32,000 bases of DNA from Candidatus Methanophagaceae archaeon (GCA_003194425.1 PQXB01000001.1:430444-462443), one strand, 5' to 3'. Counted from the stretch's first letter, positions 7,977 through 29,500 are shown. Translations and numbers: made by a program. Notes: generated by a model from the letters alone, not told the origin.

Positions 7977-8755
7977 TGTAGCCTCCCGTCAAGCCTCCCG
8001 TCCGAAATTCTTCCGTCCAAAATTTCAACTACCTTGCCCGTTCTCTTCGCCGACTCCAAATCGTGCGTCACCATCACAACCGTCTTCCCCTCTTCGTCGT
8101 TCAGCCGCTTGAGCAACTCCAAAATCTTCGCCCCTGTCCGCGAATCGAGGTTCCCGGTAGGCTCGTCCGCCAGAATAATCTTTGGGTCGTTAGCGAGCGC
8201 CCTCGCAACTGCGATTCGTTGCTGCTCCCCTCCTGAGAGTTCAGACGGCAGGTGCTCGACGCGGCTCCCTAAACCTACCCGCTCCAACAACCGCCTCGCC
8301 TTCGCTCTCCTCTCACTTCTACTCTCACTTCTGCTCTCGCTTCTGCCCTCGCTTCTGCTCTCGCTTCTGCCCTCTCCCTTCCTCTTTCCTCTGCCCTCTC
8401 CCTTCTTCTTTTCCCTCGTGTTGAAAATCATCGGGTACACCACATTCTCGACCGCGTTCAACGTAGGCAGCAAATTAAAAGTCTGAAATACAAAGCCCAC
8501 AACTTTCCGACGCAACGCCACCAGCGACCTCTTATTCTTGTAGTCCACCTGCTCGCCGTCCAGAAAAACCGCTCCTCCGGTCGGTGCGTCCAGGCATCCG
8601 AGAACATTTAGAAGCGTTGATTTCCCAGAGCCCGAGGGTCCCACGATTGAAACGAACTCGCCCGCTTCTACCCCCAAATTTACACCGTCCAACGCAGCCA
8701 CTTTCTCCCTGCCCAACCAATAATATTTTCTCAACCCCCTCGTCTCAATAATCAT
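7973..8755 (-). CDS. ABC transporter ATP-binding protein, MacB/LolD-like, with a repeat insert
   Basis: ATG at 8755 gives MIIETRGLRKYY. Walker A GPSGSGKST, signature LSGGEQQRIAVARAL, Walker B ILADEPTGNLD and H-loop MVTHD are present. The insert KKKGEGRGKRKGEGRSESRSEGRSESRSESRSE sits before the RRLLERVGL helix. The track start (TTG 8803) lies in an intergenic repeat. Confidence 0.9.
   Translation of the reverse strand: MIIETRGLRKYYWLGREKVAALDGVNLGVEAGEFVSIVGPSGSGKSTLLNVLGCLDAPTGGAVFLDGEQVDYKNKRSLVALRRKVVGFVFQTFNLLPTLNAVENVVYPMIFNTREKKKGEGRGKRKGEGRSESRSEGRSESRSESRSERRAKARRLLERVGLGSRVEHLPSELSGGEQQRIAVARALANDPKIILADEPTGNLDSRTGAKILELLKRLNDEEGKTVVMVTHDLESAKRTGKVVEILDGRISDGRLDGRLQ
8310..8417. repeat. 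in-frame tandem repeat in the ABC ATPase gene: 12-bp unit x5, then a 24-bp unit x2
   Basis: Successive 12-mers sit at 8310, 8322, 8334, 8346 and 8358: ctctcacttcta, ctctcacttctg, ctctcgcttctg, ccctcgcttctg, ctctcgcttctg. They are followed by ccctctcccttcctctttcctctg and ccctctcccttcttcttttccctc. Confidence 0.9.
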
Positions 8756-11149: not shown

Positions 11150-12715
11150 ATGAAAAAGAGCGAGAGAGGACTGCTGGGAGACATAAAAGTAACGGGGCTG
11201 CTGCTCTGCGTTTTAGCCTCTTTTGTGGTAATTTACGCGTTTCCGCCACCGCCTGCAGGTGCGGGGCTAAACGGCAACCTGAAGTACGGCTTGGACTTGG
11301 TTGGCGGGAGTTCGCTGCAGTTGAAGTTGGAGGGCAGGTTGGTCAGAATAAACGCGTCTGCTAACGCGTCAGAGGTCGCCTCTTTTCTCAGCGAGGCGCT
11401 GGACACCGAAGTAACTTATTTTAACACGACCGACGGCGGGACTTACGAGTACGAGATAAGGAAGAGCGTTACAAAAGAGCGGTTGTCAGAGGTTTTGGCG
11501 GAGATTAACGGCAGCATTGCGAAGAAGCCGAACGGAGAGGACTTCTTTGAGGAGGCGGTAACGCCTGCGACAAGGGACGAGACGCGGCGAATAATTGAAA
11601 CAAAGATAAATATGCTGGGCTTGGCGAGCACGACGATCCGAACCGTCGGGAACAACCTGATGATCATTGACTTAGCGGGAATTGACATTCAAACTGCGAA
11701 GAAAATCGTGGGCAAGCCCGGGAAGTTCGAGATTCGGATTCAGACGAACGGCACGGCAGGGGCGGTCAGAGAAGGGGCGAGGCTGGCGGAAATCGAGAAC
11801 TTCACCGCTCACGTCGTCTACGGCAGCGAGGGAATTGAGAGCCGAAGCGTAGCGACAATACCGACGCGAGAGGGCGCGGGCGCGGGCGCGAGCGAAGAGA
11901 CAGCACCGTGGGGTGCCTCGTTCAGACTGAAGGAGAAGGGTGCGGTTGCGTTGCAGGAAGCGGCGAAGAAATACAACCTGACGAGCAACCCGACTGAGGA
12001 GTTTTTACGAGAGCACGCGTTGGCGATGCTGCTCGACGATGTCGTGATTTACAACGGCACGCTAAGGCCCGAACTCGCAGCGGACTTGGGCGAGAAGCCG
12101 GTTTACAGTCTGGTTGCTCTGACTGGTACGGGGGACGAGGGCTTGAAGCGGGCGAGAGAGTTAATAATTCACTTAAAGGCGGGCGTGTTGCCCGTGAATG
12201 TGGAAATAATCGGCTCGGGCGAAGTCCCCGCCTACTTGGGTGCGAGGTTCAAGGTGGGGGCGTTGGCTGCGGGGCTGCTCGCTCTTCTCGCGGTTACGGG
12301 CGTTGTTTTCCTGCGGTACCGGGAGCGGAAAATCGTGCTGCCGATGTTTTTCACGCTGCTCAGCGAGGTGGTCTTGATTTTGGGCTTTGCTGCGGTGATT
12401 GGGTGGCAGTTGGACCTGCCGAGCATTGCGGGAATAATCGCGGTCATCGGCACGGGCGTTGACCAGCTTGTGATAATTACTGACGAGGTGCTCGCAGGAG
12501 GGCGTTCGTCTGCGCGAATGTACCGCAAGCGAATAGATTTTGCGTTCGGCATAATTTTCGCGTCTGCAACGACGACGATTGTGGCAATGCTCGCTCTTGC
12601 TTTTATGGCGCTCGGCACGCTGCGGGGTTTCGCGATCGTGACGATCGTTGGGCTGCTCTTCGGGATTTTTGTTACGCGACCAGCTTACGCGAGGGTGGTG
12701 GAGTGGATAATTTGA
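11150..12715 (+). CDS. secD: protein-export membrane protein SecD
   Basis: ATG 11150 gives MKKSERGLLGDIKVTGLLLCVLASF, an N-terminal TM helix. A large extracytoplasmic domain (GLDLVGGSSLQLKLE) follows, then a C-terminal 5-TM SecD/SecF-type bundle (IAGIIAVIGTGVDQLVIITDE). No secF is adjacent. Confidence 0.8.
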   Translation: MKKSERGLLGDIKVTGLLLCVLASFVVIYAFPPPPAGAGLNGNLKYGLDLVGGSSLQLKLEGRLVRINASANASEVASFLSEALDTEVTYFNTTDGGTYEYEIRKSVTKERLSEVLAEINGSIAKKPNGEDFFEEAVTPATRDETRRIIETKINMLGLASTTIRTVGNNLMIIDLAGIDIQTAKKIVGKPGKFEIRIQTNGTAGAVREGARLAEIENFTAHVVYGSEGIESRSVATIPTREGAGAGASEETAPWGASFRLKEKGAVALQEAAKKYNLTSNPTEEFLREHALAMLLDDVVIYNGTLRPELAADLGEKPVYSLVALTGTGDEGLKRARELIIHLKAGVLPVNVEIIGSGEVPAYLGARFKVGALAAGLLALLAVTGVVFLRYRERKIVLPMFFTLLSEVVLILGFAAVIGWQLDLPSIAGIIAVIGTGVDQLVIITDEVLAGGRSSARMYRKRIDFAFGIIFASATTTIVAMLALAFMALGTLRGFAIVTIVGLLFGIFVTRPAYARVVEWII

Positions 12716-12798
12716 AGCACGAGAAAAGCACGAGAAAATCACGAGAAAAAGAAGAGTACTACGGGCTTTTGGACGCGGTGTTTAGACGCGGTGTTTAG
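12716..12798. repeat. intergenic tandem repeats: 11 bp x3 (12716..12748) and 13 bp x2 (12773..12798)
   Basis: The 11-bp units are agcacgagaaa, agcacgagaaa and atcacgagaaa. acgcggtgtttag occurs at 12773 and 12786. The tract starts one base after the secD stop. Confidence 0.9.
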
Positions 12799-12832
12799 TC
12801 GGGTAAAAAAGAGGTTTGAAGAGTTGTGAGGT

Positions 12833-15136
12833 TTGGAAATTGTGAATGAGAAGCAGGAGTTGTTGAGGTTGCTGCGGGGGGGTATTTTGAGGAGTGTTCC
12901 GCGAGGGGAAGAGAAGGGGGAGGAGAAAGGAAAGAAGAAGTTTGGAGTGCTTTTTTCGGGGGGGTTGGATTCTACGCTCCTCGCTTGGCTGTGCAAGGAA
13001 GAGGGGCTTGATTTTGCCTGCTACACGGCGGCGGTAGAGGAAGCGGGGACGAGGGAGAGGGAGGGAGAGGAAGAGGGGGAGGGAGAAGAGGTAAGGAGGA
13101 AGGGGCTGAAAGAGGCGGAGGATTTGAGGTGGGCGAGGCGAGTTGCGGCGGATTTGGGGTTTGAGTTGCGGGTTAAGACGGTGGGGGTAGCGGAGGTGGA
13201 GGAGATTTTGAGGGAGGTGGTTCTGCTCTTTGGGGAGGAGGATGTGGTGAAGGTGAGCGTGGCGTTGCCTTTTCTCGTGGGCTGCAGGCAGGCAAGAGAG
13301 GACGGCGTAAAGACGCTCCTCTACGGGCTCGGGGCAGAGGAACTGTTCGCAGGCTACGCAAGGCACCGGCGAGTGAGGCGGGAGGACTTGAACAAGGAGT
13401 GTCGGGCGGGTTTGGCGGCGCTGCCCGAGCGGGACCTTTACAGGGACTGGCTGGTGGCGAAGGCGGCGGGAATTTCACTGCGGGCGCCGTTCTTGGCGGA
13501 GGAGTTCGTTGAGTTCGCGTTGCGGCTGCCTGCCTCGTGCAAACTCTCAACGCCAAACGGTGAGAACGGCGAGAACGAGAACAGCGAGGACAAGGTGATT
13601 TTAAGGGAAATTGCGAGGGACTTGGGGCTGGGAGAGGTCGCGGGCAGGAAAAAACGGGCGGTGCAGTACGGTTCGAATTTCCTGAAGGCGTTGGAGAAAC
13701 TGGCGAAGAGAAACGGTTTTAAGTACAAGAGGGACTACCTGCGGAGTTTTTTCCCGCCCCGAAATCTAAAGTTGGGCTGCCTCTTCAGTTCGGGCAAGGA
13801 CAGTGCCTTTGCACTCTGGCTAACGCGGAGGGCGGGCTGCAGAGTGGTGTGTTTGGTCACGTTAAAGAGCCGAAACCCCAACTCCTACCTCTTTCACACG
13901 CCCGCGGTGGAGTTGGCGGAGTTGCAGGCGGAGGCGGTTGGGCTGCCGTTGGTTCTGCAGGAGACCGCAGGCGAGAAGGAGGCGGAGTTGGAGGACTTGC
14001 GTGCTGCTCTGCGGACGGCGAAGGCGAGGCACGGGGTCGAGGGCGTCGTAACCGGTGCGTTGTGGAGCAGCTACCAGAAGGAGCGTTTTGAGAGGGTTGC
14101 GAGTGAAGAGAACCTCAAGGTCTTCTCGCCGTTGTGGCACTGCAACCAGGAGACCGAGTTGCGGCTCGCGGTCGCCAACTTTGAGGTGATTTTTACGAGC
14201 GTCGCCGCGCAGGGACTGGACAAGAGCTGGCTCGGCAGGCGAATAACTGCGGAGGATGTCGAGCGGTTGGCGGAGTTGAACAAAAAAATAGCGAAGCATT
14301 TTAATCAAACTTTTCTAAAGTTTGGTGGAATAAATGTTGCAGGAGAGGGCGGGGAGTTCGAGTCGCTGGTTCTCGACGGTCCGAAAGAGCTCTTCAAGAA
14401 ACGGCTGGTCGTGTTGGAGAGCGAGGTTGTGGAGGAGGACGAGAACACGGCGAGACTGGTAGTGAAGAAGGCGAGGCTGGAGGAGAAGGTAAAGGAGGAG
14501 GAGAAGGGGAAGGAGGAGGAGAAGAGGAAGGAGGAGGAGAAGGGGAAGGAGGAGGAGAAGGGGAAGGAGGAGGAGAAGGGGAAGGAAGAAGGAGAAATGT
14601 CAATTCCGGAGAAGCATAAAAAAGGGGCGAAGAAGAAGTTTAAATGTGCTGTGCTCACGGTAAGCACCTCTAAATTCTGGAGGCGAGAGAGGGGCGAGTC
14701 GGAAGAGGAGGTCGCGGATTTGTCAGGCAAAATAGCGAAGGAACTTGTAGCGAGAGCAGGGCACGAGGTGGTTTTCTACGACCTGCTGCCCGACGAGGAG
14801 GAGAAAATAAAAGAGGGCGTCTCAAGTGCGTTGAAGAGTGGGGCGGATTTTGTTGTTACCTCTGGCGGAACAGGCTTGACAAAGAGCGACCTCACGATTG
14901 AGGTTGTCTCGAGACTGCTGGAGAAGGAGATGCCGGGGTTTGGCGAAATCTTCAGGCTGAAGAGCTACGAGACTGCGGGGGTCGGCACCGCGGCGGTCTT
15001 GAGCCGTGCGGTTGCTGGCGTCGTGGGGCAGAAGGCGGTCTTCTGCCTGCCCGGGTCGCCAGACGCGGTTAGGCTGGCGTTGAGCGAGATAATTCTGCCG
15101 GAAATAGGGCATATTCTGAAGCACGCGAGGGAGTGA
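12833..15136 (+). CDS. uninterrupted triple-domain ORF: Asn-synthase-like PP-loop domain, Dph6/MJ0570-like ATP-binding domain and MoaB/MogA domain
   Basis: 767 aa with no in-frame stop. Domain 1 has FSGGLDSTLLAWL, LYGLGAEELFAGY and ISLRAPFL (AsnB synthetase domain, no glutaminase domain). Domain 2 has LFSSGKDSAFALW, FHTPAVELAELQAEAVGLP, GALWSSYQKERFERV and GEGGEFESLVLDGP (diphthine-ammonia ligase family). Domain 3 has CAVLTVSTSKF, SGGTGLTKSDLT and CLPGSPDAV (MoaB). The start is uncertain (TTG 12833 or GTG 12842; there is no early ATG). Inserts include GEEKGEEKGKKK, EREGEEEGEGEE and (EEEKGK)n. Confidence 0.75.
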   Translation: MEIVNEKQELLRLLRGGILRSVPRGEEKGEEKGKKKFGVLFSGGLDSTLLAWLCKEEGLDFACYTAAVEEAGTREREGEEEGEGEEVRRKGLKEAEDLRWARRVAADLGFELRVKTVGVAEVEEILREVVLLFGEEDVVKVSVALPFLVGCRQAREDGVKTLLYGLGAEELFAGYARHRRVRREDLNKECRAGLAALPERDLYRDWLVAKAAGISLRAPFLAEEFVEFALRLPASCKLSTPNGENGENENSEDKVILREIARDLGLGEVAGRKKRAVQYGSNFLKALEKLAKRNGFKYKRDYLRSFFPPRNLKLGCLFSSGKDSAFALWLTRRAGCRVVCLVTLKSRNPNSYLFHTPAVELAELQAEAVGLPLVLQETAGEKEAELEDLRAALRTAKARHGVEGVVTGALWSSYQKERFERVASEENLKVFSPLWHCNQETELRLAVANFEVIFTSVAAQGLDKSWLGRRITAEDVERLAELNKKIAKHFNQTFLKFGGINVAGEGGEFESLVLDGPKELFKKRLVVLESEVVEEDENTARLVVKKARLEEKVKEEEKGKEEEKRKEEEKGKEEEKGKEEEKGKEEGEMSIPEKHKKGAKKKFKCAVLTVSTSKFWRRERGESEEEVADLSGKIAKELVARAGHEVVFYDLLPDEEEKIKEGVSSALKSGADFVVTSGGTGLTKSDLTIEVVSRLLEKEMPGFGEIFRLKSYETAGVGTAAVLSRAVAGVVGQKAVFCLPGSPDAVRLALSEIILPEIGHILKHARE
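14492..14581. repeat. 18-bp tandem repeat x5 (aaggaggaggagaagggg) at the Dph6-like/MoaB junction, in frame
   Basis: Copies sit at 14492, 14510 (one substitution), 14528, 14546 and 14564. They encode KEEEKG repeats and end 15 nt before the internal ATG at 14597. Confidence 0.95.
14597..15136 (+). CDS. moaB: possible independently translated MoaB cistron nested in the fusion ORF
   Basis: The in-frame ATG at 14597 is preceded by gaaggagaa (Shine-Dalgarno-like). The 179-aa product MSIPEKHKKGAKKKFKCAVLTV... has the normal length and N-terminus of a stand-alone MoaB. Confidence 0.45.
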   Translation: MSIPEKHKKGAKKKFKCAVLTVSTSKFWRRERGESEEEVADLSGKIAKELVARAGHEVVFYDLLPDEEEKIKEGVSSALKSGADFVVTSGGTGLTKSDLTIEVVSRLLEKEMPGFGEIFRLKSYETAGVGTAAVLSRAVAGVVGQKAVFCLPGSPDAVRLALSEIILPEIGHILKHARE

Positions 15137-15152
15137 GTGCGAAGGCTAAAAG

Positions 15153-15226
15153 TGGGGTCGGTGCGATTTGAACGCACGATCGGCGAGTCTGGAGCCCGCT
15201 GCCCTTCCGAACTAGGCCACGACCCC
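15153..15226 (-). tRNA. tRNA-Trp (anticodon CCA), no intron
   Basis: The reverse complement folds as acceptor GGGGTCG/CGACCCC plus discriminator A, D arm GCCT/GGGC, anticodon stem GCGGG/CTCGC, loop CTCCAGA and T arm GTGCG-TTCAAAT-CGCAC. Confidence 0.9.
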
Positions 15227-15251
15227 TTCCTACATTTACAACATTTTATCC

Positions 15252-15260
15252 TTTTAAAAA
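15252..15260 (-). promoter_or_regulatory. candidate TATA box for tRNA-Trp
   Basis: tttttaaaa on the minus strand is centred about 30 nt upstream of the tRNA 5-prime end (15226), squeezed against the methyltransferase stop codon (15264..15266). Confidence 0.4.
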
Positions 15261-15263
15261 CCT

Positions 15264-16106
15264 TCAGCAACGCCACCTCAAAATCTCCGGCTCTGGCGAC
15301 AGAAACTTAAACCCCTCGGCAAACAATTTCTTCTGCCTCTCGCTCTCTCGAATTCTCTCCAAAGCCGTCTCGCAGTACTCCGGCGAGACCTCGACTCCTA
15401 CGAACCGCCTCCGCAGTTTAAACGCCACGAAAGTGGTCGTGCCTGCTCCGTTGAAAGGGTCAAGGACGAGGTCGCCCCTGTAGGAGAACAATTTCATCAC
15501 CCGCCTCGGCAGTTCCTCTGGAAACATCGCCGGATGCCCGAATTCCTTCATTCTCGTCTCTGGCGCAAACTTCCACCTCGCAAAGACCCACTCTTTGAAC
15601 TCCGCGTCCGTAATGTCCGCGTCCTCCCGCCTGCCTGCTTTCTTGTGCGTCGCCTTGTCGAAAATCTCGATGAACTCCCAAGTGTATTTCAGGTACGGCA
15701 TTGACGGCGACTTCCAACTGCCCCAAGCCGTGTATTTGGCGTTGTAGTTGCTCTTCTCCCACAGCACCTCCGCCTTCCACAGAAACCCAATTTTTAGCAG
15801 TTGGTTCGAGATTAGGTGGTGCGTGGGAATGTAGTCAGAGAAGAGCGGTTGGACGTTCACTGCGATTCTCCCGCCCGGTTTCAGCACCCTGTAGCACTCC
15901 TCCCAAACCGCGTTCAAACTCTTGAAGTAGTCGTTCCACTCTCGCGTGTCTCCACTCGGGTCGTTCGCGTAGCACTGCCCGAAGTTGTAAGGCGGTGAGG
16001 TTACGACAAGGTCAACGGAATTTGCAGGAATCGCAGGCAGCACCTCCTCTGACCTCCCGCAGATTATTTTGTTGACAAATTCCTCTACTCTTCTTCTCTC
16101 CTGCAC
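15264..16106 (-). CDS. DNA methyltransferase, beta-class N4-cytosine/N6-adenine (N6_N4_Mtase family), orphan
   Basis: 280 aa with a GTG start. The catalytic motif IV VVTSPPYNF precedes the AdoMet motif I VLDPFNGAGTT, which is the beta-class order. HPAMFPEELP is also present. No restriction endonuclease-like ORF is on either side. Confidence 0.85.
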   Translation of the reverse strand: MQERRRVEEFVNKIICGRSEEVLPAIPANSVDLVVTSPPYNFGQCYANDPSGDTREWNDYFKSLNAVWEECYRVLKPGGRIAVNVQPLFSDYIPTHHLISNQLLKIGFLWKAEVLWEKSNYNAKYTAWGSWKSPSMPYLKYTWEFIEIFDKATHKKAGRREDADITDAEFKEWVFARWKFAPETRMKEFGHPAMFPEELPRRVMKLFSYRGDLVLDPFNGAGTTTFVAFKLRRRFVGVEVSPEYCETALERIRESERQKKLFAEGFKFLSPEPEILRWRC

Positions 16107-16114
16107 GACGCCCG

Positions 16115-16143
16115 CACCTCAACACCTCAACACCTCACCTCAA
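16115..16143. repeat. intergenic 8-bp tandem repeat (cacctcaa x2, then shortened copies cacctca and cctcaa) running into the rpl15e stop codon
   Basis: cacctcaa occurs at 16115 and 16123, then cacctca at 16131 and cctcaa at 16138. The rpl15e stop (tca on +) is 16140..16142. Confidence 0.85.
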
Positions 16144-16748
16144 CGCCCGACTGCTCTCCCTCTGCCTTTTTGACCTGCGGAGGTCTTCCCGCGGAAAACC
16201 CGCCCTTTGTGCTTCCTGCTGCAAATCCAGTTAAGGCTCTTGTCAGATTTTATCGCGGGGTTCGCGGGCTCGAGGAAGATTATTTCGTACCACTTCCGCT
16301 TCCCGTCCTCCGCGACCCAGTAAGAGTTGAGGACCTCGAGGTTCGGGTATTTCCTCGCGGCACGCTCCTCCGCAATTCGCTGCAGGCTCTTGGAAGGGGT
16401 TATTTTGTGCACCCCCATTCTTTTCGGTCGTCTCCCGTGCTTCGGTCTCTGCTTCCTTCGCCCGCCGCGCCGCACCTTCACCCGCACCACGAGGACGCCC
16501 TGCTTCGCCTTGTAGCCCAACGAGCGTGCGCGGTCCAACCTCGTCGGTCGCTTTACCCTCACAACCGCCGGCTCTCTCCGCCACGCCACTAACCGCTTCT
16601 GCCTGAGTTCTCTTGCTGCTGCCCCTGCTCCCGCCCTTGTTCCTGTTCCTGCCCTTGTTCCTGCCCTTCCTCCTGCGTTTGTTCCTGCGTAGGACGTTTC
16701 TGGTCGCTTCCACGCGTCGCGTACGAAACCATAAAATGACTTTGCCAT
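16140..16748 (-). CDS. rpl15e: 50S ribosomal protein L15e with an N-proximal low-complexity insert
   Basis: [46 protein letters not shown] and [28 protein letters not shown] are present. The insert is [25 protein letters not shown]. Confidence 0.92.
16633..16686. repeat. in-frame 12-bp (and 6-bp half-unit) repeat inside rpl15e
   Basis: The + strand reads gcccttgttcct, gttcct, gcccttgttcct, gcccttcctcct, gcgtttgttcct. Confidence 0.8.
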
Positions 16749-16847
16749 TCTTTGTGTTCTCCTTAATTTTTCTTGATTTGAATTTAATGAGATGATTAAA
16801 TATAAGAGTAAAAAAACAAATTAGAGGAATACAAGTTAAGCAAGTAG

Positions 16848-17407
<560 letters not shown>

Positions 17408-17412
17408 ATCGA

Positions 17413-17498
17413 GCCGAGGTAGCTTAGCGGACAAAAGCGCCGGCCTTGAGAGCCGGTGTTCCTACAGGAACACAAGGGTTCAAATCCCTTCCTCGGCG
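17413..17498 (+). tRNA. tRNA-Ser (anticodon UGA), long variable arm
   Basis: Acceptor GCCGAGG/CCTCGGC plus discriminator G, anticodon stem CCGGC/GCCGG, loop CTTGAGA, variable arm TGTTCCTACAGGAACAC and T arm AAGGG-TTCAAAT-CCCTT. It starts 5 nt after the rpl37e stop. Confidence 0.9.
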
Positions 17499-17541
17499 TT
17501 CTCTCTGGGGTGAGGTGCGAGAAAAAAATAAGAATAAAAAA

Positions 17542-17994
17542 ATGAAAGAATACGAGTACGAGCAACTGTTAGACCGGGCGTTGAGGCAGCTGCCCGAGGG
17601 GAGCGGGACCGCTGCCGAGGGGGAGGCTGACTCACGCTTTGCTGTTCCAATGCTGCGGGTTTTTGTAGAGGGCAAGACCACGATTTTTGACAACTTTGAC
17701 GCGGTCTGCGACTACATAAATCGCGAGCAGGAGCACCTGATGAAATTCCTGCTGAACGAGTTGGGCACAGCGGGCAAGAAAGAGGGGAGCAGGGCGATTT
17801 TTCAGGGACAGTTCTCGAGAGAGGTGGTCGAGCAGCAGATTCAGCGCTACTTGGACGAGTTCGTGCTGTGCTGGGAGTGCAAGAAGCCGGACACTCATTT
17901 TGTGAAAATGGACCGTGTTTGGGTGCTGAAGTGTGATGCGTGCGGTGCGGTTCGCCCGATTATGAAACGGAAGGGCGTGAAGGCGAGGAAGTGA
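17542..17994 (+). CDS. eif2b: translation initiation factor aIF-2 beta subunit
   Basis: ATG 17542 gives MKEYEYEQLLDRALRQLPE. The C-terminal zinc ribbon is CWECKKPDTHFVKMDRVWVLKCDACG. The track start at 17446 reads through the tRNA-Ser gene and is rejected. Confidence 0.9.
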   Translation: MKEYEYEQLLDRALRQLPEGSGTAAEGEADSRFAVPMLRVFVEGKTTIFDNFDAVCDYINREQEHLMKFLLNELGTAGKKEGSRAIFQGQFSREVVEQQIQRYLDEFVLCWECKKPDTHFVKMDRVWVLKCDACGAVRPIMKRKGVKARK

Positions 17995-17995
17995 T

Positions 17996-18095
17996 TTTGA
18001 GGTTTAGTTTAGGGTTTAGGGGTTTGGAGACGCGGGGGGTTGGAGGCGCGGGGGTTTGGAGGTTTGGAGGTTTGGAGGCGCGGGGGTTTAGAGAG
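17996..18095. repeat. G-rich intergenic repeat tract (ggtttggagg and ggaggcgcgggggttt units)
   Basis: The tract reads ggtttagtttagggtttaggggtttggag..., with ggaggcgcgggggttt at 18043 and 18075 and ggaggtttggaggttt between them. G-runs sit at 18012-14, 18019-22, 18034-39, 18050-54 and 18082-86. Confidence 0.8.
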
Positions 18096-18099
18096 ACGA

Positions 18100-18705
18100 A
18101 TGGAGTTGTTGGAGAACGAGGTTGAGTTAGTGGGACGGCTCTGCGAGCGGATCGAGAGACGGGGGCGAGTGTTGGATCTTGGGTGCGGCACGGGAAAGTT
18201 GGGGATTTTTTTGAGTGAGGTTCTGGGCGGTGCTGTTGAGGTTACGGGAGTTGACACGGAGTTGGAGAAGGTAAAGAAGGCACGAGAGAACTCGCCCTCC
18301 ACGAATATTACGTTTGAGGTGCAGTCTGCGGAGGAGTTGGCTTTTGCAGACGAGACTTTCGACGCGGTCGTGTCGCTGAAGGCGTTGCACGAAATCGCTG
18401 AGCCTGGAAAGGCACTGCGGGAGGCGAGCCGGGTGCTGAAAGACGGCGGGCAGGTGTTTGTCGTTGACTGGGTTGGCGGAGGCGGTGCAGCCAGTGCCAC
18501 CACTCGTAAAACAAACACAAACACAAACACAAACACAAAAGCAAAAACAAAAACACAGACTCGCAGCGGACACGCGAGGAAGTATTTTACGAGGCAGCGT
18601 TTAGAAGAGCTTCTTTTGGACGCGGGCTTCCGCGGTCTGAAAATTGAAGTCAACAGAGAGGGCGAGTTAATGTTGGCGGAAGCGAGAAAAACAAAAATAA
18701 AATAA
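18100..18705 (+). CDS. class I SAM-dependent methyltransferase (small, Methyltransf_11-like) with a microsatellite insert
   Basis: ATG 18100 gives MELLENEVELVGRLCERIERRGRVLDLGCGTGKLG (motif I). FDAVVSLKALHE and LKDGGQVFVVDW (post-I/II) follow. The insert is GGGGAASATTRKTNTNTNTNTKAKTKTQTR. Confidence 0.7.
   Translation: MELLENEVELVGRLCERIERRGRVLDLGCGTGKLGIFLSEVLGGAVEVTGVDTELEKVKKARENSPSTNITFEVQSAEELAFADETFDAVVSLKALHEIAEPGKALREASRVLKDGGQVFVVDWVGGGGAASATTRKTNTNTNTNTKAKTKTQTRSGHARKYFTRQRLEELLLDAGFRGLKIEVNREGELMLAEARKTKIK
18511..18556. repeat. hexanucleotide microsatellite (acaaac)x4 perfect plus degenerate copies, in frame in the methyltransferase
   Basis: acaaac occurs at 18511, 18517, 18523 and 18529, followed by acaaaa, gcaaaa, acaaaa and acacag. 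Confidence 0.95.
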
Positions 18706-20411: not shown

Positions 20412-21011
20412 ATGGCAGTAGGAAGAGAGACGCAGGTTGTAGCGTGTAGAAAAGGGCAGGCACTCGGGTTGGGCGGCGGGATCGCACAGCGCGGGACTTT
20501 TGCAAAGGCGTGGCGGAACGATGTAATCGCGGTCGCGATGTCGCCGGGCTACAGGCACGTGCCGAAGCCGGTCTGCCAAATAACCACTGAATTGCGGGGC
20601 AGGGGAATAAACACGGGCGAGATAATTTTGAACGCCGGGGACGGAACGCCAGCGGACGCACCCTCAGGCGGCGGGCACGGCGTAGCCTTCGGTCTCGAGC
20701 CGCGGGAGATTGAGATCATTGGACAGCACAAACTCGCGATTTTGCACCACGGCAACGTAAAAGAGCATTTCATCTACAAGGTGCGGTTTGAGTTGCGGAA
20801 GGTCGCGGTGCCTGCGATCGTTCTCTGCCAGTCGCCGCTGACCTTTGAAGACTTCGAGGAAATCGGCGTGAGCACGCGGAACAAAGCCGGCGAGACGCCT
20901 GGCAAAGTCGTGGGAATTGTTACAGGCATCGTGCGAAACGCGGACGTCCCGCAAGCGAAACTCGACGAAATCGTGAGCAAGGTAAAAATGTGCCTCCGAG
21001 AACTCTCTTAA
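20412..21011 (+). CDS. mcrC: methyl-coenzyme M reductase operon protein C
   Basis: 199 aa. GGGIAQRGTFA, VIAVAMSPGYRHVPKPVCQIT, DAPSGG, LAILHHGNVKEHFIYKVRF, FEDFEEIGV and KLDEIVSKVK are collinear with McrC as I remember it from Methanothermobacter. No mcrA/B/G/D gene is in the window. Confidence 0.9.
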   Translation: MAVGRETQVVACRKGQALGLGGGIAQRGTFAKAWRNDVIAVAMSPGYRHVPKPVCQITTELRGRGINTGEIILNAGDGTPADAPSGGGHGVAFGLEPREIEIIGQHKLAILHHGNVKEHFIYKVRFELRKVAVPAIVLCQSPLTFEDFEEIGVSTRNKAGETPGKVVGIVTGIVRNADVPQAKLDEIVSKVKMCLRELS

Positions 21012-23214: not shown

Positions 23215-24645
23215 ATGCTGCTTGAAATGCCAAGGCACACGGAAATCTTCGGCTCGGTTAAGGTTCACGAGCTACAACGCGTGCTAAAATTAGACTCCGG
23301 CGGGTTTGAGAACCCACGTGCAAAGGACATTAGTTCTGAAGAGCTTAAAGGGGTTTTAAAGCGTTCTGCAATCGTGGTTCCGGTAAAGAACGAGAACCTG
23401 AACCTGCTGGACGGTGTTTTGCGGGCGATTCCGTTTGACTGCTCGATTATCGTGGTCTCGAACAGCGAGCGGGTCTCGCAGGACACCTACAAAATGGAGC
23501 GGGAGCTGGTAACTAACACCCACGACCTGACGCAGCAGGAGATTCTCATAATTCACCAGAAAGACCCCGGATTAGGCTCTGCTTTTCACGAAGTTGGTTA
23601 TGAGGAGATTCTTGAGAAGGAGAAGTTGGACGGAAAGGAGGCGGGAGAGGAGGCGGGAGAGGAGGCGGGAGAGGAGGCGGGAGAGGAGACAGGAAAGGAG
23701 AAGAAGAAATGGTTGGTCAGGGACGGGAAATCAGAGGGGATGATCATTGGGATGCTGCTTGCGAAGTCGCTGGGCAAGGATTTTATCGGGTTCGCAGACG
23801 CCGACAATTTTGTGCCTGGTGCGGTGCGGGAATATGTGATGGATTTTGCTGCTGGGTTCTGTATGTCTGAGTCGCCGTTCTCGATGGTGCGACTTCACTG
23901 GCGCTACAAGCCGAAGGTCGTGGAGGACAAACTCTACTTCAAGAAATGGGGACGGGTCAGCGAGACCACGAACAAGTACCTCAACCTCCTCATCTCTACC
24001 TGCACGGGCTTCGAGACCGGGGTCGTGATCACCGGGAACGCGGGCGAGCACGCACTGACGACGAGGCTCGCAGACTTGATGTGCTACTCTACCGGCTACA
24101 CAATCGAGCCCTACCACTTCGTTTTTCTCTTCGACAAGTTTGGACCAAGGGAGGCGGAGGAGTCTGCTGAGAAGGTGGGTGCTGAGAAGGTGGGTGCTGA
24201 GAAGGCGGGTACTGAGAAGGCGGGTACTGAGAAGGCGAGTTCAGAAGCTGCGAACGCGGGGATTGAGATCTTTCAGATCGAGACATTGAACCCGCACTTG
24301 CACGAAGAGAAGGGGGAGGCGCACATTAATGAAATGCTGACCGGCTCGCTGCGAATGGTCTACAACTGCAGGCTCTGTAACGATTATGTGAAGTCGAAGG
24401 TGCTTGCAGAGTTGGAGGGTTTGGAGGCGTTGCAGGAGGATTGGGAAGCCAGGTCAAGGTGGAAGGGCAAACCCAGCCACATAATGCCGCCTGTTGGAAG
24501 AATTGATGTGGGGAAATTTATGAAAGTGCTGAAGAGCAGTTCTGAGTCTCTACTAAGGTGCAAGCAAGGGGCTACAAAGTGTGAAGTGGTGGAGCGGGGG
24601 AGGGGAGAGAAGAAAAATGAAACGAGTTCTTTTTACAGACCTTGA
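23215..24645 (+). CDS. mpgS: mannosyl-3-phosphoglycerate synthase (GT55) with two repeat inserts and a C-terminal extension
   Basis: MLLEMPRHTEIFGSVKVHELQRV, VVPVKNENLNLLDGVL, IIHQKDPGLGSAF, GFADADNFVPGAVREYV, MVRLHWRYKPKV, YFKKWGRVSETTN, TGNAGEHALT and IEIFQIETLNPHLHEEKG are collinear with Pyrococcus MpgS as I recall it. The inserts are (EAGE)x4 and (AEKVG)x5. The last 28 or so residues extend past the usual ...SESLLR end and overlap mpgP by 29 nt. Confidence 0.92.
   Translation: MLLEMPRHTEIFGSVKVHELQRVLKLDSGGFENPRAKDISSEELKGVLKRSAIVVPVKNENLNLLDGVLRAIPFDCSIIVVSNSERVSQDTYKMERELVTNTHDLTQQEILIIHQKDPGLGSAFHEVGYEEILEKEKLDGKEAGEEAGEEAGEEAGEETGKEKKKWLVRDGKSEGMIIGMLLAKSLGKDFIGFADADNFVPGAVREYVMDFAAGFCMSESPFSMVRLHWRYKPKVVEDKLYFKKWGRVSETTNKYLNLLISTCTGFETGVVITGNAGEHALTTRLADLMCYSTGYTIEPYHFVFLFDKFGPREAEESAEKVGAEKVGAEKAGTEKAGTEKASSEAANAGIEIFQIETLNPHLHEEKGEAHINEMLTGSLRMVYNCRLCNDYVKSKVLAELEGLEALQEDWEARSRWKGKPSHIMPPVGRIDVGKFMKVLKSSSESLLRCKQGATKCEVVERGRGEKKNETSSFYRP
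23638..23697. repeat. in-frame 12-bp repeat x4 perfect plus one degenerate copy (gaggcgggagag) in mpgS
   Basis: Identical copies at 23638, 23650, 23662 and 23674, then gagacaggaaag. Confidence 0.95.
24166..24240. repeat. in-frame 15-bp repeat x5 (gctgagaaggtgggt and variants) in mpgS
   Basis: Copies at 24166, 24181, 24196, 24211 and 24226 show stepwise single-base drift (gtgggt to gcgggt, gctgag to actgag, gcgggt to gcgagt). Confidence 0.95.
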
Positions 24646-26593: not shown

Positions 26594-29500
26594 ATGAGAA
26601 ACGAAATGCGAGGGGGAGACAAAGAGGGAGGAGCGAAAGAGGGAGGAGCGAAAGAGGGAGGAGCGAAAGAGGGAGGGAAAGAAGGTGAAATGAGAGAAGA
26701 GGGCGAAGGAGGAGTAGAAGGAAAAGAGACGATTTACTTGGTTCCGCACACGCACTACGACGCGATTTGGGCGTTCACGAAGGAGGATTATTTTCACATA
26801 AATATGGTTTTGATTTTGCAGGAGGTGGTCGAGCTTGTAGAAAAGAAAGATTACAAGTTCCTGATTGAGCAGACATTTCTGCTGGAAGAGTTGGAGAGGC
26901 GGTACCCGGGGGTGTTTGCGAAGGTTGCGAAGGGGGTGAAGGAGGGAAAGATTGAGATTGCCGACGGCGAGTATTTGATGGCGGACACGATGCTGCCCGA
27001 GGGGGAGACGCTGATAAGGGAGATTTTTGAGGGGAAGAAATATGTAAAGGAGAAGTTTGGGAAGGAGGTGCCGGTAATGTGGCAGGCGGACAGCTTTGGT
27101 CTGAACGCGCAACTGCCGCAGATTTACAAGAAATCGGGCTACAAATATGTCGCTTTCCGGCGGGGGGTGACGAAGAGGAAACCGTCGGAGTTCTACTGGG
27201 CGGCTCTGGACGGGACGCGGATTTTGGCTCACTGGATGCCGCTGGGCTACCGGGCAGGGCTGGACTTGACGAAGTTGGAGGAGAGTTACGCGAAGTTGAA
27301 GGAGGTTGCGGCGACCTCGCAGATTTTAATGCCGTCTGGCAGTGGCGTTACGGTGCCGCAGCCAGAGACCGCAGAGGTCGTGCGGGCGTGGAACGAGGCG
27401 GCGAAGGGAGCAGGACTGGGAGCAGGACTGGGAGCAGGACTGGGAGCAGGAGCAGGGAAAGGAGCAGTGCAGGGAGCGGGACAGGGAGGAGGAGCAGGAC
27501 AGGGAGCAGGGAAAGGAGCAGTGCAGGTTGGGGGGGAGAGAGCGGAAATGAAAGTAGCGACGCCGAGCGAGTTCTTTGAAGCGCTGGAGAGGGAGGTGGC
27601 GGAGCGGAAGATTGAGTTGGAGGTCAGGCGGGGGGAAATGTATTCGGGGCGGTTTTCAGAGGTCTTTCCGAGTTGCTGCTCGAGCAGGATGTGGATAAAA
27701 CAGGAGCTCAGCGAGTACGAGTGTTGGCTGCTCTGCTGCGAGCGGTGGAGCACCGTAAACTACCTCCTGAACAACCCCTACGTCGAGGAAGAGGCGAGGA
27801 ACTGCTGGCGTAAGATTTTGTACATCGCTTTTCACGATGTCGCACCTGGAACCGGAATGGACGAGGGCTACGAGGAGGTGCGGCAGTTCCGTAACTTCTT
27901 AAACACCGAAATGACCACTCGCTGCCACCGCACGCAGAATCAGGTGATTGAAAGCGAGTCAGAGGACGGAGAGAGAAAGGGGGACGGAGAGAGAAAGGGG
28001 GACGGAGAGAGAAAGGGGGAGAAGGGAGTGAAGAAGGAGGACAAGGAAAAGGAACTCCGAAAGCAATTCTTGATGACGCACGGCTACGGTGACATAATGG
28101 TTTTTAACTCGCTCTCGTGCGAAATGCGGAACTGGGTGGAGATGGATTTGAACTTTGACCGCGGGCAGGTGGTCGCGATTGGCGGGCTAAAGAGTGGTGA
28201 AGAGGAAATCGGGGTGGAGGTGCTAAAATTTGCGAGGTACGCGGACGACTCGTTGCGGTCTGCGAGGATTGGGTTCGTGCCTACGGTTCCTGCGATGGGC
28301 TACAAGATTTATAAAATCCTTGAGCGAAAGCCTAAGCAGTCTCGTTTTGATCCTAATTTTCTGATGACTCGCGGGAACACGATTGAGAACCGTTTCTTTG
28401 GCGTGGAGGTGGACCCTGCCACGGGGTTGGTTGATATTTTTTTCGGGCGTGGGCAGAAGGGAGAGACGGAGCAGGAGCGGATTTGCACTGCGAACGAACT
28501 CGTGCTTGAGGAAGAGACCGGCGACCTTTACTACCACCGAGAGACCTTGCGCGGTCCGCTGAAGAGTGAGACTGGGGAAGGGGTGAAGTACGGCTCGTTC
28601 AGGGTGGAGGATTTCAAGATTGAGGAGAGCCCGCTGCGGCATGTTGTAAGTATTGAGACAGATTATTTTTCACTGCGTTGGCCGTACAGGCTGACCGAGA
28701 AGAAAGAGCCGCTTATTTGGCGGCACAAATTCTTGAAGTGCTCGAAGAAAATTATCGTTTACAAGGACCTTCCGAGAATTGATTTCGTTACAGAAGTAGA
28801 GGACAAGCACCCGCGGGCACGGCTCAGGGTCAAGTTCAGCACGGACATAAAATCGCTGACCTACACTTGCGGAGCGCAGTTTGGCGTTGTTTCACGACCG
28901 ACCGACCAGTGGGGCTTTGAGCCAAAAGAGGCGTGGGTGGAGAAGCCGTGCGGGACATTTCCGTCGCTGAAATGGCTTGATTTCTCTGACGGTCGGAAGG
29001 GCTTGACTGTGCTTCACAGGGGGCTGCCGGAGAACGAGGTGCGAGACGGGAATGTTTATTTGACGCTGCTACGAAGCGTTTCAATGCTCTCCTCGGACGG
29101 CAAGACCGGTCCTGCAATTCCAGTTCCAGACGCGCAGGAGTTGCGGAAGTACGTCTTTAGGTACTCGATTTACCCGCACAGGGGAGATTGGCGTGAAGCG
29201 GCGTCCTACAAGCACGCTCTCGAGTTCAACTACCATTTGGACGCAGTGCAGCTGCGTGAAGAGAAGAAACTTCCTCTAGAACGGTCTTTTCTGAAAATAG
29301 AACCGGAGAGCGTCGTTCTCTCAGCGCTGAAGAAAGCGGAGGCGGGAGACGAGGTGGTGCTGAGATTTTACGAGACGAAAGGCGAGGAGACGGACGCTGA
29401 AATAACTCTCTTCAAGGCGCCAAAATCGGTCAAGGTGGTGAATATGCTCGAAGAAGAGGTGGCAGGGAAAGGCGTGGCAGGGAAAGGCGTGGCAGGGAAA

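Follow-up and report, generated by a model that had tools for sequence, protein, structure and literature searches.

A single 767-codon frame in a thermophilic ANME-1 archaeon very probably represents two genes, a glutaminase-less AsnB-like/Dph6 fusion and moaB

Archaeal proteins that join an asparagine synthetase-like (AsnS-like) domain to Dph6 have been described before. Specifically, fusions of GAT-II, Asn_Synthase_B_C, and DUF71 are found in Methanohalophilus mahii, Methanosalsum zhilinae, and 'Ca. Nanosalinarum' (de Crecy-Lagard et al. 2012, Biol Direct 7:32, PMC3541065), and the N-terminal GAT-II domain of this family is the proposed source of ammonia (PMC3541065). The same description left open what role the AsnS-like domain has without glutamine hydrolysis, a point brought up by its reviewer (PMC3541065). 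Here, we analyse a 32,000-nucleotide stretch of DNA (the window) from a thermophilic, methane-oxidising ANME-1 (Methanophagales) archaeon, in which an ORF of 767 aa with a TTG start runs stop-free on the plus strand at 12833..15136. The original prediction had read this ORF as one frame with three domains, and all three are found by Pfam, i.e. Asn_synthase (residues 35-188 and further, E 1.5e-31), Diphthami_syn_2 (residues 315-548, E 8.5e-58), and MoCF_biosynth (residues 606-760, E 6.5e-33, 113.9 bits vs a cut-off of 26.6); the domain names it gave agree with both the Pfam and the NCBIfam results. We find that the region very probably consists of two genes, a glutaminase-less AsnB-like/Dph6 fusion (gene 1) and a stand-alone moaB (gene 2), with the in-frame state being due either to a rare variant or to faulty assembly of a hypervariable coding repeat. 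The features of the locus are collected in Table 1.

Table 1. Features of the AsnS-like-Dph6/moaB locus, in window coordinates.
Feature	Position	Strand	Basis and remarks
Intergenic region between secD and the AsnS-like-Dph6 gene	12716..12832	+	Short tandem repeats; TRF 12715-12749, 12768-12798, 12811-12845
AsnB-type synthetase (PP-loop) domain, residues 1-305, without N-terminal GAT-II	12833..13747	+	Pfam, structure and sequence matches
In-frame purine repeat insertion, REREGEEEGEGEEVRRKG loop, inside the AsnS-like domain	13046..13086	+	TRF; copy number varies among strains
Second in-frame repeat insertion, NGENGENE, in the AsnS-like domain	13556..13577	+	TRF, period 9
Dph6 (diphthine--ammonia ligase) domain, residues 306-553	13748..14491	+	Pfam, TIGR03679, fold; repeat-free fusion to the AsnS-like domain
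Hypervariable 18-nt coding repeat, five units at 14492-14581	14479..14596	+	TRF 6.5 copies, score 199; (KEEEKG)n tail of the Dph6 gene
Invariant 18 nt GGGAAGGAAGAAGGAGAA, SD-like GGAG	14579..14596	+	Junction sequences of all assemblies; directly 5' of the moaB ATG
moaB (MogA/MoaB molybdopterin adenylyltransferase family), 179 codons and stop	14597..15136	+	Pfam; stand-alone in 14 other resolved assemblies
TAA ending the Dph6 frame in ten +1 assemblies	14617..14619	+	22 nt inside moaB; tail ...EREGRRRNVNSGEA before the stop; out of frame in the window
TAA ending the Dph6 frame in four +2 assemblies	14661..14663	+	66 nt inside moaB; tail ...SLNVLCSR before the stop; out of frame in the window
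tRNA-Trp (CCA)	15152..15226	-	ARAGORN; Rfam tRNA 59.2 bits; marks the downstream end of the unit

The AsnS-like/Dph6 junction had been proposed to be genuine and repeat-free, and it is indeed part of a conserved fusion present in hundreds of proteins in ANME-1, Methanosarcinales, and DPANN. The same proposal did not recognise the architecture, which is widespread and has been published since 2012 (PMC3541065). Among 855 family matches, the best 120 carry Asn_synthase and Diphthami_syn_2, and almost all of these also carry GATase. Identity to the window protein reaches 57-66% in the closest ANME-1 members and 46-51% in DPANN members among the matches listed. The window protein has the AsnS-like to Dph6 order, the repeat-free junction, and the two conserved PP-loops of the GAT-II + AsnB_C + DUF71 family, and it also has the same protein end if the repeat is left out. 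It differs in that it begins exactly at the GAT-II/synthetase boundary, lacks about 200 residues including the Cys1 nucleophile, and has two loop insertions and a C-terminal tail that derive from repeats. What is new in the AsnS-like/Dph6 pairing is only that this species has cleanly lost the glutaminase domain.

That loss, also part of the original prediction, is supported by an ORF that begins at the synthetase domain and by the absence of GAT-like sequence from the window. Gene 1 has two candidate starts, TTG 12833 and GTG 12842, with gene callers choosing GTG in other strains. The GAT domains of three relatives, searched against the window with tblastn, give nothing below E = 1.7, and no remnant of a glutaminase domain is found in the intergenic region behind secD (which ends at 12715), where strains differ by indels of 11, 19, and 28 nt. 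GAT-II is likewise absent wherever a same-species assembly extends across the start of the gene; in these assemblies, gene 1 starts about 120 nt past secD and encodes products of 570-620 aa. A phmmer search with GAT against 1.84 billion representatives returns many short matches; those inspected resemble AT-rich DPANN fragments by composition, and none of them can be assigned to this organism. In relatives, the N-terminal GAT-II begins with MCGI or MCEI, and in some of them (P0068 and P0078) it is partly deleted internally.

The remaining synthetase domain matches residues 227-453 of E. coli AsnB (1CT9, E 4.2e-14), and its fold, compared using Foldseek, matches AsnB, human ASNS, beta-lactam synthetase, and carbapenam synthetase. 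Its PP-loop (SGGLDS, residues 42-47) is intact. GAT-II has been cleanly lost, yet 56/58 family-invariant residues are retained in the AsnS-like domain (72/78 in the Dph6 domain), which argues for a role of the former that is independent of glutamine hydrolysis. Judging from this sequence conservation, the AsnS-like PP-loop domain is under continuing selection, and the species offers a natural experiment on the fusion family, i.e. retention of the domain after removal of GAT-II. The scores for asparagine synthetase B equivalogs are missed by a wide range (TIGR01536, 97.4 bits vs 267.1; PRK09431, 95 vs 499). In addition, Leu166, within YGLGAEE, takes the position of E. coli AsnB E348 and human ASNS E364 in the SGEGSDE motif; leucine is found there in at least 90% of 54 homologues in a 55-sequence family alignment, and the human ASNS variants E364A and E364Q are inactive (PMC6748925). 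The domain is thus probably not an asparagine synthetase, because leucine replaces the glutamate needed for aspartate activation; it may serve as a scaffold or perform a different adenylation. Beta-lactam and carbapenam synthetases have lost glutaminase activity and are changed at the position of AsnB E348. These enzymes (1JGT/1MBZ and 1Q15/1Q19, respectively) have the synthetase-domain fold in common with the window domain and retain a degenerate GAT-like domain, whereas the window protein has none at all.

Both repeat insertions of the AsnS-like domain fall in loops modelled with low confidence. The first is longer by 27 or 54 nt in other strains, is missing in relatives, and has AF2 pLDDT values below 50 (residues 74-88); the second has a mean pLDDT of 57 (residues 241-250), and the loop is shorter in relatives.

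The Dph6 assignment is supported by NCBIfam Dph6_archaeal (TIGR03679, 242.7 bits vs a cut-off of 197.3, residues 316-546) and by a match to PH1257 (2D13, E 8.7e-49) that ends at about window residue 551. The signature GEGGEFES (residues 504-511) corresponds to the Dph6-subfamily motif GEGGE-F/Y-E188-T/S, with Glu where the B12 subfamily has His (PMC3541065). The domain resembles the stand-alone archaeal Dph6 proteins PF0828 (3RK1) and PH1257 in sequence (35-40% identity), in the fold of its PP-loop HUP and C-terminal domains, and in structural alignment (Foldseek target-normalised TM 0.92-0.94, rmsd 1.5-2.2; TM 0.93 for PF0828). It differs from them in sitting behind a second PP-loop domain and in its own PP-loop sequence, SSGKDS in place of SGGKDS, which it has in common with the other members of the fused family. 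Gene 1 is predicted to adenylate, through this domain, the diphthine carboxylate on elongation factor 2, which would then be amidated to diphthamide; the nitrogen donor would most likely be free ammonia, since the GAT-II domain is gone.

The downstream part of the frame has the properties of a complete MoaB. It scores above the cut-off for the molyb_syn domain (TIGR00177, 118.7 bits vs 85.35), and the size and N-terminus of a stand-alone MoaB that had been claimed for it agree with homologue lengths and N-terminal alignments. Specifically, the best 120 MoaB homologues listed are 157-235 aa long, almost all 170-197, have MoCF_biosynth as their sole Pfam domain, and for the most part cover 99-100% of the query from ATG 14597. 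Stand-alone archaeal and bacterial MoaB, which we take to be a molybdopterin adenylyltransferase in archaea as well, includes the S. tokodaii (3IWT, 178 aa) and B. cereus (1Y5E, 169 aa) proteins; residue 5 of the 179-aa window MoaB aligns with residue 6 of the former, and residue 3 with residue 3 of the latter. The GGTG motif is present in the window MoaB, and the C-terminal PGSP is common to it and 3IWT. The difference from stand-alone MoaB is confined to the window assembly, which alone has no in-frame stop 5' of the ATG. The predicted in-frame ATG with SD-like context is present at 14597, with GAAGGAGAA directly upstream and 179 codons downstream, and 18 contigs have a separate gene call for exactly this 179-aa product. 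From sequence conservation and homologue alignments we infer independent initiation at 14597. In the whole window, an Rfam scan finds four tRNAs and nothing else.

One alternative is that the 767-aa frame encodes a genuine, selected trifunctional enzyme with the E/K-rich repeat as a flexible linker. In its favour, the window has an open frame, moaA is found two genes upstream, and the repeat period is divisible by three, as in the repeats inside this genome's genes. Against it, MoCF_biosynth is present in none of the best 120 of the 855 family matches, the three-domain architecture is likewise absent among the listed MoaB homologues, and moaB does not neighbour the fusion gene in related genera (0/13 loci from other genomes have it within 6 kb). 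Diphthamide and molybdenum cofactor synthesis are also not known to be functionally linked. The same-species comparison set out below counts further against a trifunctional enzyme, and we consider it highly improbable.

At the Dph6/MoaB junction, the predicted 18-bp repeat in five copies is confirmed by a pattern search and TRF. Five copies of the unit AAGGAGGAGGAGAAGGGG fill 14492..14581, four of them exact and one with a single mismatch (0.02 matches expected by chance). The junction tract is about 99% purine, so a stop codon is hardly possible within it; because the tract hardly holds stops, continuity of the frame into moaB depends on tract length modulo 3 alone. An open frame into moaB is thus roughly a one-in-three event and unremarkable. 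In the window, the tract measures 117 nt from anchor to ATG, which places moaB in frame. Homologues of the upstream gene (114 sequences) end at window residues 547-560, mostly at 552, the start of the repeat. The proposal that a spacer repeat erased the gene boundary and created a fusion therefore stands in part: the upstream gene has lost its original end to the repeat, while the join of Dph6 to MoaB is not organism-wide, being in frame in 0/14 other resolved same-species assemblies. Nor is the repeat an untranslated spacer, as it is translated in every strain as the (KEEEKG)n tail of the Dph6 gene. The last 18 nt before the ATG are invariant and are likely, from their sequence, the translation-initiation region of moaB; their purine-rich context is similar to that of other gene starts in the window.

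We compared the junction with 16 other same-species assemblies (97.8-99.5% nucleotide identity), 14 of which are resolved there, while the other two have N gaps exactly at the repeat. The loci were obtained by exact-protein look-ups and reached via MoaB and, free of that bias, via a neighbouring DNA methyltransferase; a scan of a genome collection gave other genera only, with 0 same-species loci. Tract lengths in the 14 assemblies are 49, 67 (three times), 85 (four times), 86 (twice), 89, 103, 104, and 118 nt, so that moaB is in the +1 frame relative to Dph6 in 10/14 and in +2 in 4/14. A stop codon within the repeat had been expected in relatives, and none is present in the same-species assemblies; reading frame is what separates the genes. 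In every other assembly, GGAAAGGG precedes the invariant 18 nt and the bases immediately before these are GGAAA, while the window alone lacks the former, has GAGAAG, and reads ...GAGAAGGGGAAGGAAGAAGGAGAAATG without GAAA. Indels within genes are multiples of 3 (27, 54, 12, 30, and 36 nt) and junction lengths are not, which means that no constraint ties the Dph6 and moaB frames, contrary to what a trifunctional enzyme would lead one to expect. An exact look-up of the fused three-domain product with six possible starts in a collection of 5.8 billion proteins finds none, and there is no sign of selection for a 767-aa product. Selection against in-frame alleles was also considered (0/14 assemblies with 8 distinct alleles, P ~0.04), and this claim was dropped given that the alleles are non-independent.

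The window's missing GAAA could be purely an error of assembly or consensus, the true strain sequence having a GAAA-containing 22-nt last unit. The GAAA unit is present in 15/15 informative contigs, including one (L117) that differs from the window over 2.4 kb by one mismatch and the 4-nt GAAA indel only. Moreover, the tract is exactly where a contig of the same strain (L116, 99.98% identity to the window) breaks off, 18 nt short of the ATG, two scaffolds have N gaps there, and tandem repeats are reportedly a source of assembly error. On the other hand, a 4-nt difference is atypical of homopolymer error, and the number of units clearly does vary in the population; loss of GAAA through a genuine contraction is thus just as plausible. 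Taken together, an error is a serious possibility that stays short of probable. A real in-frame allele, i.e. a 4-nt contraction in a hypervariable 18/22-nt coding minisatellite by which Dph6 and MoaB have only now become fused in one strain of a natural ANME-1 population, a fusion at birth, is a tentative reading that we regard as somewhat doubtful.

The tract is hypervariable and the population includes all three frame relations, which would suit a phase-variation (contingency) locus where slippage toggles between separate and fused proteins, or between Dph6 C-terminal tails, as regulated diversity. Ordinary slippage of the 18-nt main unit is, however, frame-neutral (49, 67, 85, and 103 nt are all +1), and a change of frame requires foreign 12-nt units or the 22-nt unit, which is rarer. 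Elsewhere in the window, dozens of repeats of this kind vary alike without switch logic, and the invariant moaB start region is kept in all states; regulated switching is thus very unlikely. Alternatively, programmed ribosomal frameshifting in the repeat could yield the Dph6-MoaB fusion as the normal product in out-of-frame strains too. Its one point of support is the overlap of the two frames. Strains would require differing shifts (+1 or +2), no obvious slippery heptamer or downstream structure was seen by eye in the junction sequences, and the listed MoaB homologues are stand-alone, making frameshifting extremely improbable.

In the two-gene reading that we prefer, the original stop of gene 1 would have been overwritten by the ~99%-purine 18-nt coding repeat and a 22-nt variant unit carrying GAAA; gene 1 would therefore read on through its (KEEEKG)n tail to the first in-frame stop. 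In the population, this stop lies 22 (or 66) nt inside moaB, so that the genes overlap out of frame, with gene 2 an ordinary moaB that would be translated from its own ATG. The 4-nt GAAA is missing from the window version, which brings moaB into frame; slippage or recombination may have produced this as a rare allele, or else assembly or consensus building went wrong in a hard-to-assemble tract. With a real allele, a 767-aa read-through protein would be made in this strain, together with free MoaB or in its place, and the fusion would be one outcome of genome-wide remodelling by sense-strand purine-rich repeats, which affects loops, tails, and gene boundaries. Such a product, if made, would be marked by a peptide spanning KGKEEGEMSIPEK.

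For annotation, a 767-aa 'trifunctional' product should not be spread as a new enzyme architecture. The strain series suggests that a coding repeat of about 99% purine can erase a stop, after which one irregular indel joins the neighbours. Joining driven by repeats is as such a plausible route to new fusions, represented here by a singleton only. A literature search on short tandem repeats in ANME-1 returned nothing relevant, the one ANME-1 'hotspot' paper dealing with structural variants above 50 bp.

Among known systems, the junction can be compared with coding minisatellites at gene ends and with bacterial contingency loci. As in these, copy number varies between strains that are otherwise 98-99.5% identical, and changes in length shift the frame relation to the next gene. 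In contrast to these systems, the main unit here is divisible by three, the downstream gene has its own start, and there is no on/off logic.

The 767-codon frame opens with a TTG, with a GTG three codons later, and runs uninterrupted through an AsnB-type synthetase (AsnS-like, PP-loop) domain, a Dph6 (diphthine–ammonia ligase) domain, and MoaB. The original prediction of three domains in one stop-free frame, with a fivefold repeat at the last junction and an ATG behind it, was borne out by Pfam, NCBIfam, and TRF. Specifically, the junction holds five AAGGAGGAGGAGAAGGGG units (pattern search; 0.02 expected by chance) within a longer TRF array. Because the junction tract is ~99% purine, it can hardly hold a stop codon, and frame continuity from Dph6 into moaB is set only by tract length modulo 3. 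The region comprises two genes—i.e. a glutaminase-less member of the AsnB-like/Dph6 fusion family and an ordinary moaB—and the single 767-codon frame is peculiar to the window's assembly.

Positions of features in the window, with residues numbered along the 767-codon frame
Feature	Window position	Residues	Details
moaA	9911-10963		radical SAM + Mob_synth_C
Open frame	12833..15136 (+)		767 codons
Asn_synthase-like		from 35	Pfam E 1.5e-31
Diphthami_syn_2 (Dph6)		315-548	Pfam E 8.5e-58; NCBIfam Dph6_archaeal 242.7 bits vs cut-off 197.3
MoCF_biosynth (MoaB)		606-760	Pfam E 6.5e-33; NCBIfam molyb_syn 118.7 bits vs 85.35
AsnS-like loop	13046-13086		+27 or +54 nt in other strains
Junction TRF array	14479-14596
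AAGGAGGAGGAGAAGGGG x5	14492-14581
moaB ATG	14597		179 codons
Dph6 stop, moaB +1	14617-14619		TAA
Dph6 stop, moaB +2	14661-14663
Tandem array, MCM	1372-1539
Tandem array, ABC ATPase	8302-8374
Tandem array, L15e	16619-16675
Tandem arrays, MPG synthase	23632-23700 and 24165-24237
Tandem arrays, GH38	26610-29529
Intergenic arrays	12715-12798, 16115-16137, about 16780, 18019-18093		strain-variable
tRNA-Ser	17413-17498
eIF2-beta, longest ORF	17446-17994		TTG 17446
199-aa ORF 3' of atwA	20412-21011		PF04609, E 8e-7, profile 72-172 of 271
12-nt repeat in GH38	27406-27511		in frame

We surveyed 16 other assemblies of the species (97.8–99.5% nucleotide identity), found via near-identical proteins, exact MoaB look-up, and the neighbouring methyltransferase as a guard against ascertainment bias, and measured the tract from a fixed Dph6 anchor to the moaB ATG. 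The window's tract is 117 nt, with moaB in frame with Dph6, a state seen in 0/14 of the other assemblies with a readable tract; an N gap in the tract leaves the frame unreadable in 2 more. In 10 assemblies moaB is +1 relative to Dph6, at tracts of 49 (1 assembly), 67 (3), 85 (4), 103 (1), and 118 nt (1), and the Dph6 frame ends ...EREGRRRNVNSGEA followed by its stop. It is +2 in 4, at 86 (2), 89 (1), and 104 nt (1). Lengths of 49, 67, 85, and 103 nt follow 49 + 18n: ordinary slippage by whole units, with the frame preserved. The last unit is 22 nt (...GAGAAGGAAAGGG) in every assembly other than the window, and the contig L097 has two such units, with moaB +2. The window has no 22-nt unit, just ...GAGAAGGGG, the difference being a 4-nt GAAA. 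Junction length does not vary in steps of three, so neither frame, that of Dph6 or that of moaB, constrains the other; as read from these sequences, moaB has its own predicted start and normally overlaps the Dph6 gene out of frame.

Fusion of Dph6 to MoaB is not conserved, and a collection of 5.8 billion proteins holds no fused Dph6–MoaB product. Among the contigs nearest the window, L116 shares its L15e allele exactly and matches it at 99.98% identity across 5.1 kb, ending 18 nt 5' of the moaB ATG, short of the distinguishing GAAA site. L117, with one mismatch over 2.4 kb, extends to 51 nt 5' of that ATG and has the GAAA unit. The in-frame state may be a rare contraction allele, which we rate as having at best an even chance and perhaps appreciably less; if real, it exemplifies a stop-free purine repeat joining adjacent genes. 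It may instead be an assembly or consensus error, a possibility we place somewhat short of even, and the junction tract does break or gap other assemblies. Nothing points to selection for the joined product.

More than 20 tandem arrays occur in the window, purine-rich on the sense strand regardless of gene orientation. The period is divisible by three in 12 of 13 in-gene arrays, which encode E/K/G/R/A-rich insertions, housekeeping proteins included; in MCM, for example, a ~56-residue repeat array lies between the P-loop and lid domains. In-gene strain indels are multiples of three, as in the AsnS-like loop and in L15e (+12, +30, or +36 nt between strains; 198 to 214 aa), and the two repeat-derived AsnS-like insertions are low-confidence loops (AF2). 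At gene edges, most arrays have a period that is not a multiple of three, and stops are frequent in them, in agreement with the stop-bearing spacer repeats first noticed at aroA, atwA, and mpgP. Nearly all indels in 11574-18184, compared with L001, L015, L016, and L096-L105 (strains 98–99.5% identical), fall within tandem arrays, and intergenic arrays vary as well. With its period of 18, the junction array bears the signature of arrays inside genes, and it is translated as the Dph6 tail in every strain; it is a coding C-terminal repeat in place of the original stop, not an untranslated spacer. The proposal that a spacer repeat erased the gene boundary and created a fusion is thus right about the replaced stop, and wrong about the spacer, given translation everywhere, and about the fusion as a trait of the species, given 0/14 in frame. 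Separately, a 12-nt unit, GGGAGCAGGAC[T/A], forms the repeat within the GH38 alpha-mannosidase gene and also builds the Dph6–moaB junction of L015, L098, L107, and L111 (21/22 nt identical), so that unrelated loci share this motif.

The repeat begins exactly where Dph6 homologues end: 114 fusion homologues end at window residues 547-560 (commonest 552), and PH1257 at about 551. The best 120 MoaB homologues are 157–235 aa long (almost all 170–197) with MoCF_biosynth as sole Pfam domain, and query coverage from the moaB ATG is 99–100% in most of them; solved MoaB structures align to within one residue of it. At 13 loci of other genera, no moaB is found closer than 6 kb to the fusion gene (0/13). 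The 18 nt 5' of the ATG, GGGAAGGAAGAAGGAGAA, include an SD-like GGAG and are invariant across all assemblies, and the sequence just upstream is hypervariable; such invariance amid hypervariable surroundings fits a functional moaB initiation region. moaA lies two genes 5' of AsnS-like/Dph6, with secD between, so that in this species, unlike the 13 related loci examined, the Dph6 gene sits between the molybdenum cofactor genes moaA and moaB.

Gene order in the window is MCM, aroA, SF1 helicase, ftsX, ABC ATPase, trpA, tRNA-Gln, moaA, secD, [AsnS-like/Dph6, moaB], tRNA-Trp (-), DNA methyltransferase (-), L15e (-), LSM, eIF2-beta, methyltransferase, atwA, mcrC-like, psmA, SBDS, MPG synthase, mpgP, radical SAM, GH38, and MCP; an Rfam scan of the window returned nothing beyond four tRNAs. 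Proteins sharing at least 90% identity with the window's L15e, DNA methyltransferase, and MoaB bear the names 'ANME-1 cluster archaeon ex4572_4', 'Methanophagales archaeon', and 'Methanomicrobia archaeon', which speaks against Methanopyrus as the source; ex4572_4 is mentioned in work on hydrothermal sediments of the Guaymas Basin (PMC5569505). The longest eIF2-beta ORF overlaps tRNA-Ser; the protein is called as 150 aa in other strains, and the real start is therefore further downstream, near 17542. The ORF directly 3' of atwA has a weak partial McrC match and may encode a short McrC-like protein.

Fusion of the AsnS-like and Dph6 domains is real, old, and previously described, with 855 matches among 5.8 billion proteins. 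The best 120 carry Asn_synthase and Diphthami_syn_2, almost all with GATase too. These are mostly ~680–750 aa, drawn from ANME-1/Methanophagales, Methanosarcinales, Nanoarchaeota, and Woesearchaeota; in relatives, an N-terminal MCGI/MCEI class-II glutaminase domain (GAT-II) precedes the synthetase and Dph6 domains. The Dph6 domain has the Dph6-type motif GEGGEFES, not the B12-type ENGEFH, and matches PH1257 and PF0828 in sequence (E 8.7e-49) and fold (TM 0.93; AF2 model, mean pLDDT 87.5). In the Nanoarchaeota locus L010 (6001-8409), AsnS-like and Dph6 matches are separated by ~1 kb, possibly reflecting an insertion or a split, and L012, L013, and L014 have the AsnS-like part without a Dph6 match.

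The window protein's start coincides exactly with the GAT-II/synthetase boundary of relatives. Only a 117-nt, repeat-filled spacer separates it from secD, the 32-kb window holds no GAT-like sequence, and the gene is equally short (products 570–620 aa) in every same-species assembly covering its start. In P0068 and P0078, ~605-aa homologues from ANME-1 relatives, GAT-II keeps its MC... N-terminus without ~100 internal residues, which suggests repeated GAT-II erosion in the family. Compared with 114 homologues, the AsnS-like domain retains 56/58 and the Dph6 domain 72/78 of positions at least 95% conserved. The AsnS-like domain falls far under the cut-off of asparagine synthetase equivalog models (97 bits vs 267), and throughout the family Leu replaces the SGEGSDE glutamate of AsnB (E348 in E. 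coli, E364 in human); the human enzyme is inactive as E364A or E364Q (PMC6748925). We infer that the AsnS-like domain is something other than a canonical asparagine synthetase and has a role independent of GAT-II, and that Dph6 of this species probably uses free ammonia.

The original prediction held that this pairing looks like a genuine fusion, correctly, and did not recognise the architecture, which had in fact been described. GAT-II + AsnB_C + Dph6 was reported in 2012 from Methanohalophilus, Methanosalsum, and 'Ca. Nanosalinarum', with GAT-II proposed as ammonia supplier and the second PP-loop domain's role queried by a reviewer (de Crecy-Lagard 2012; PMC3541065). Modestly new here are the population series of junction lengths and the clean loss of GAT-II while the AsnS-like domain stays conserved.
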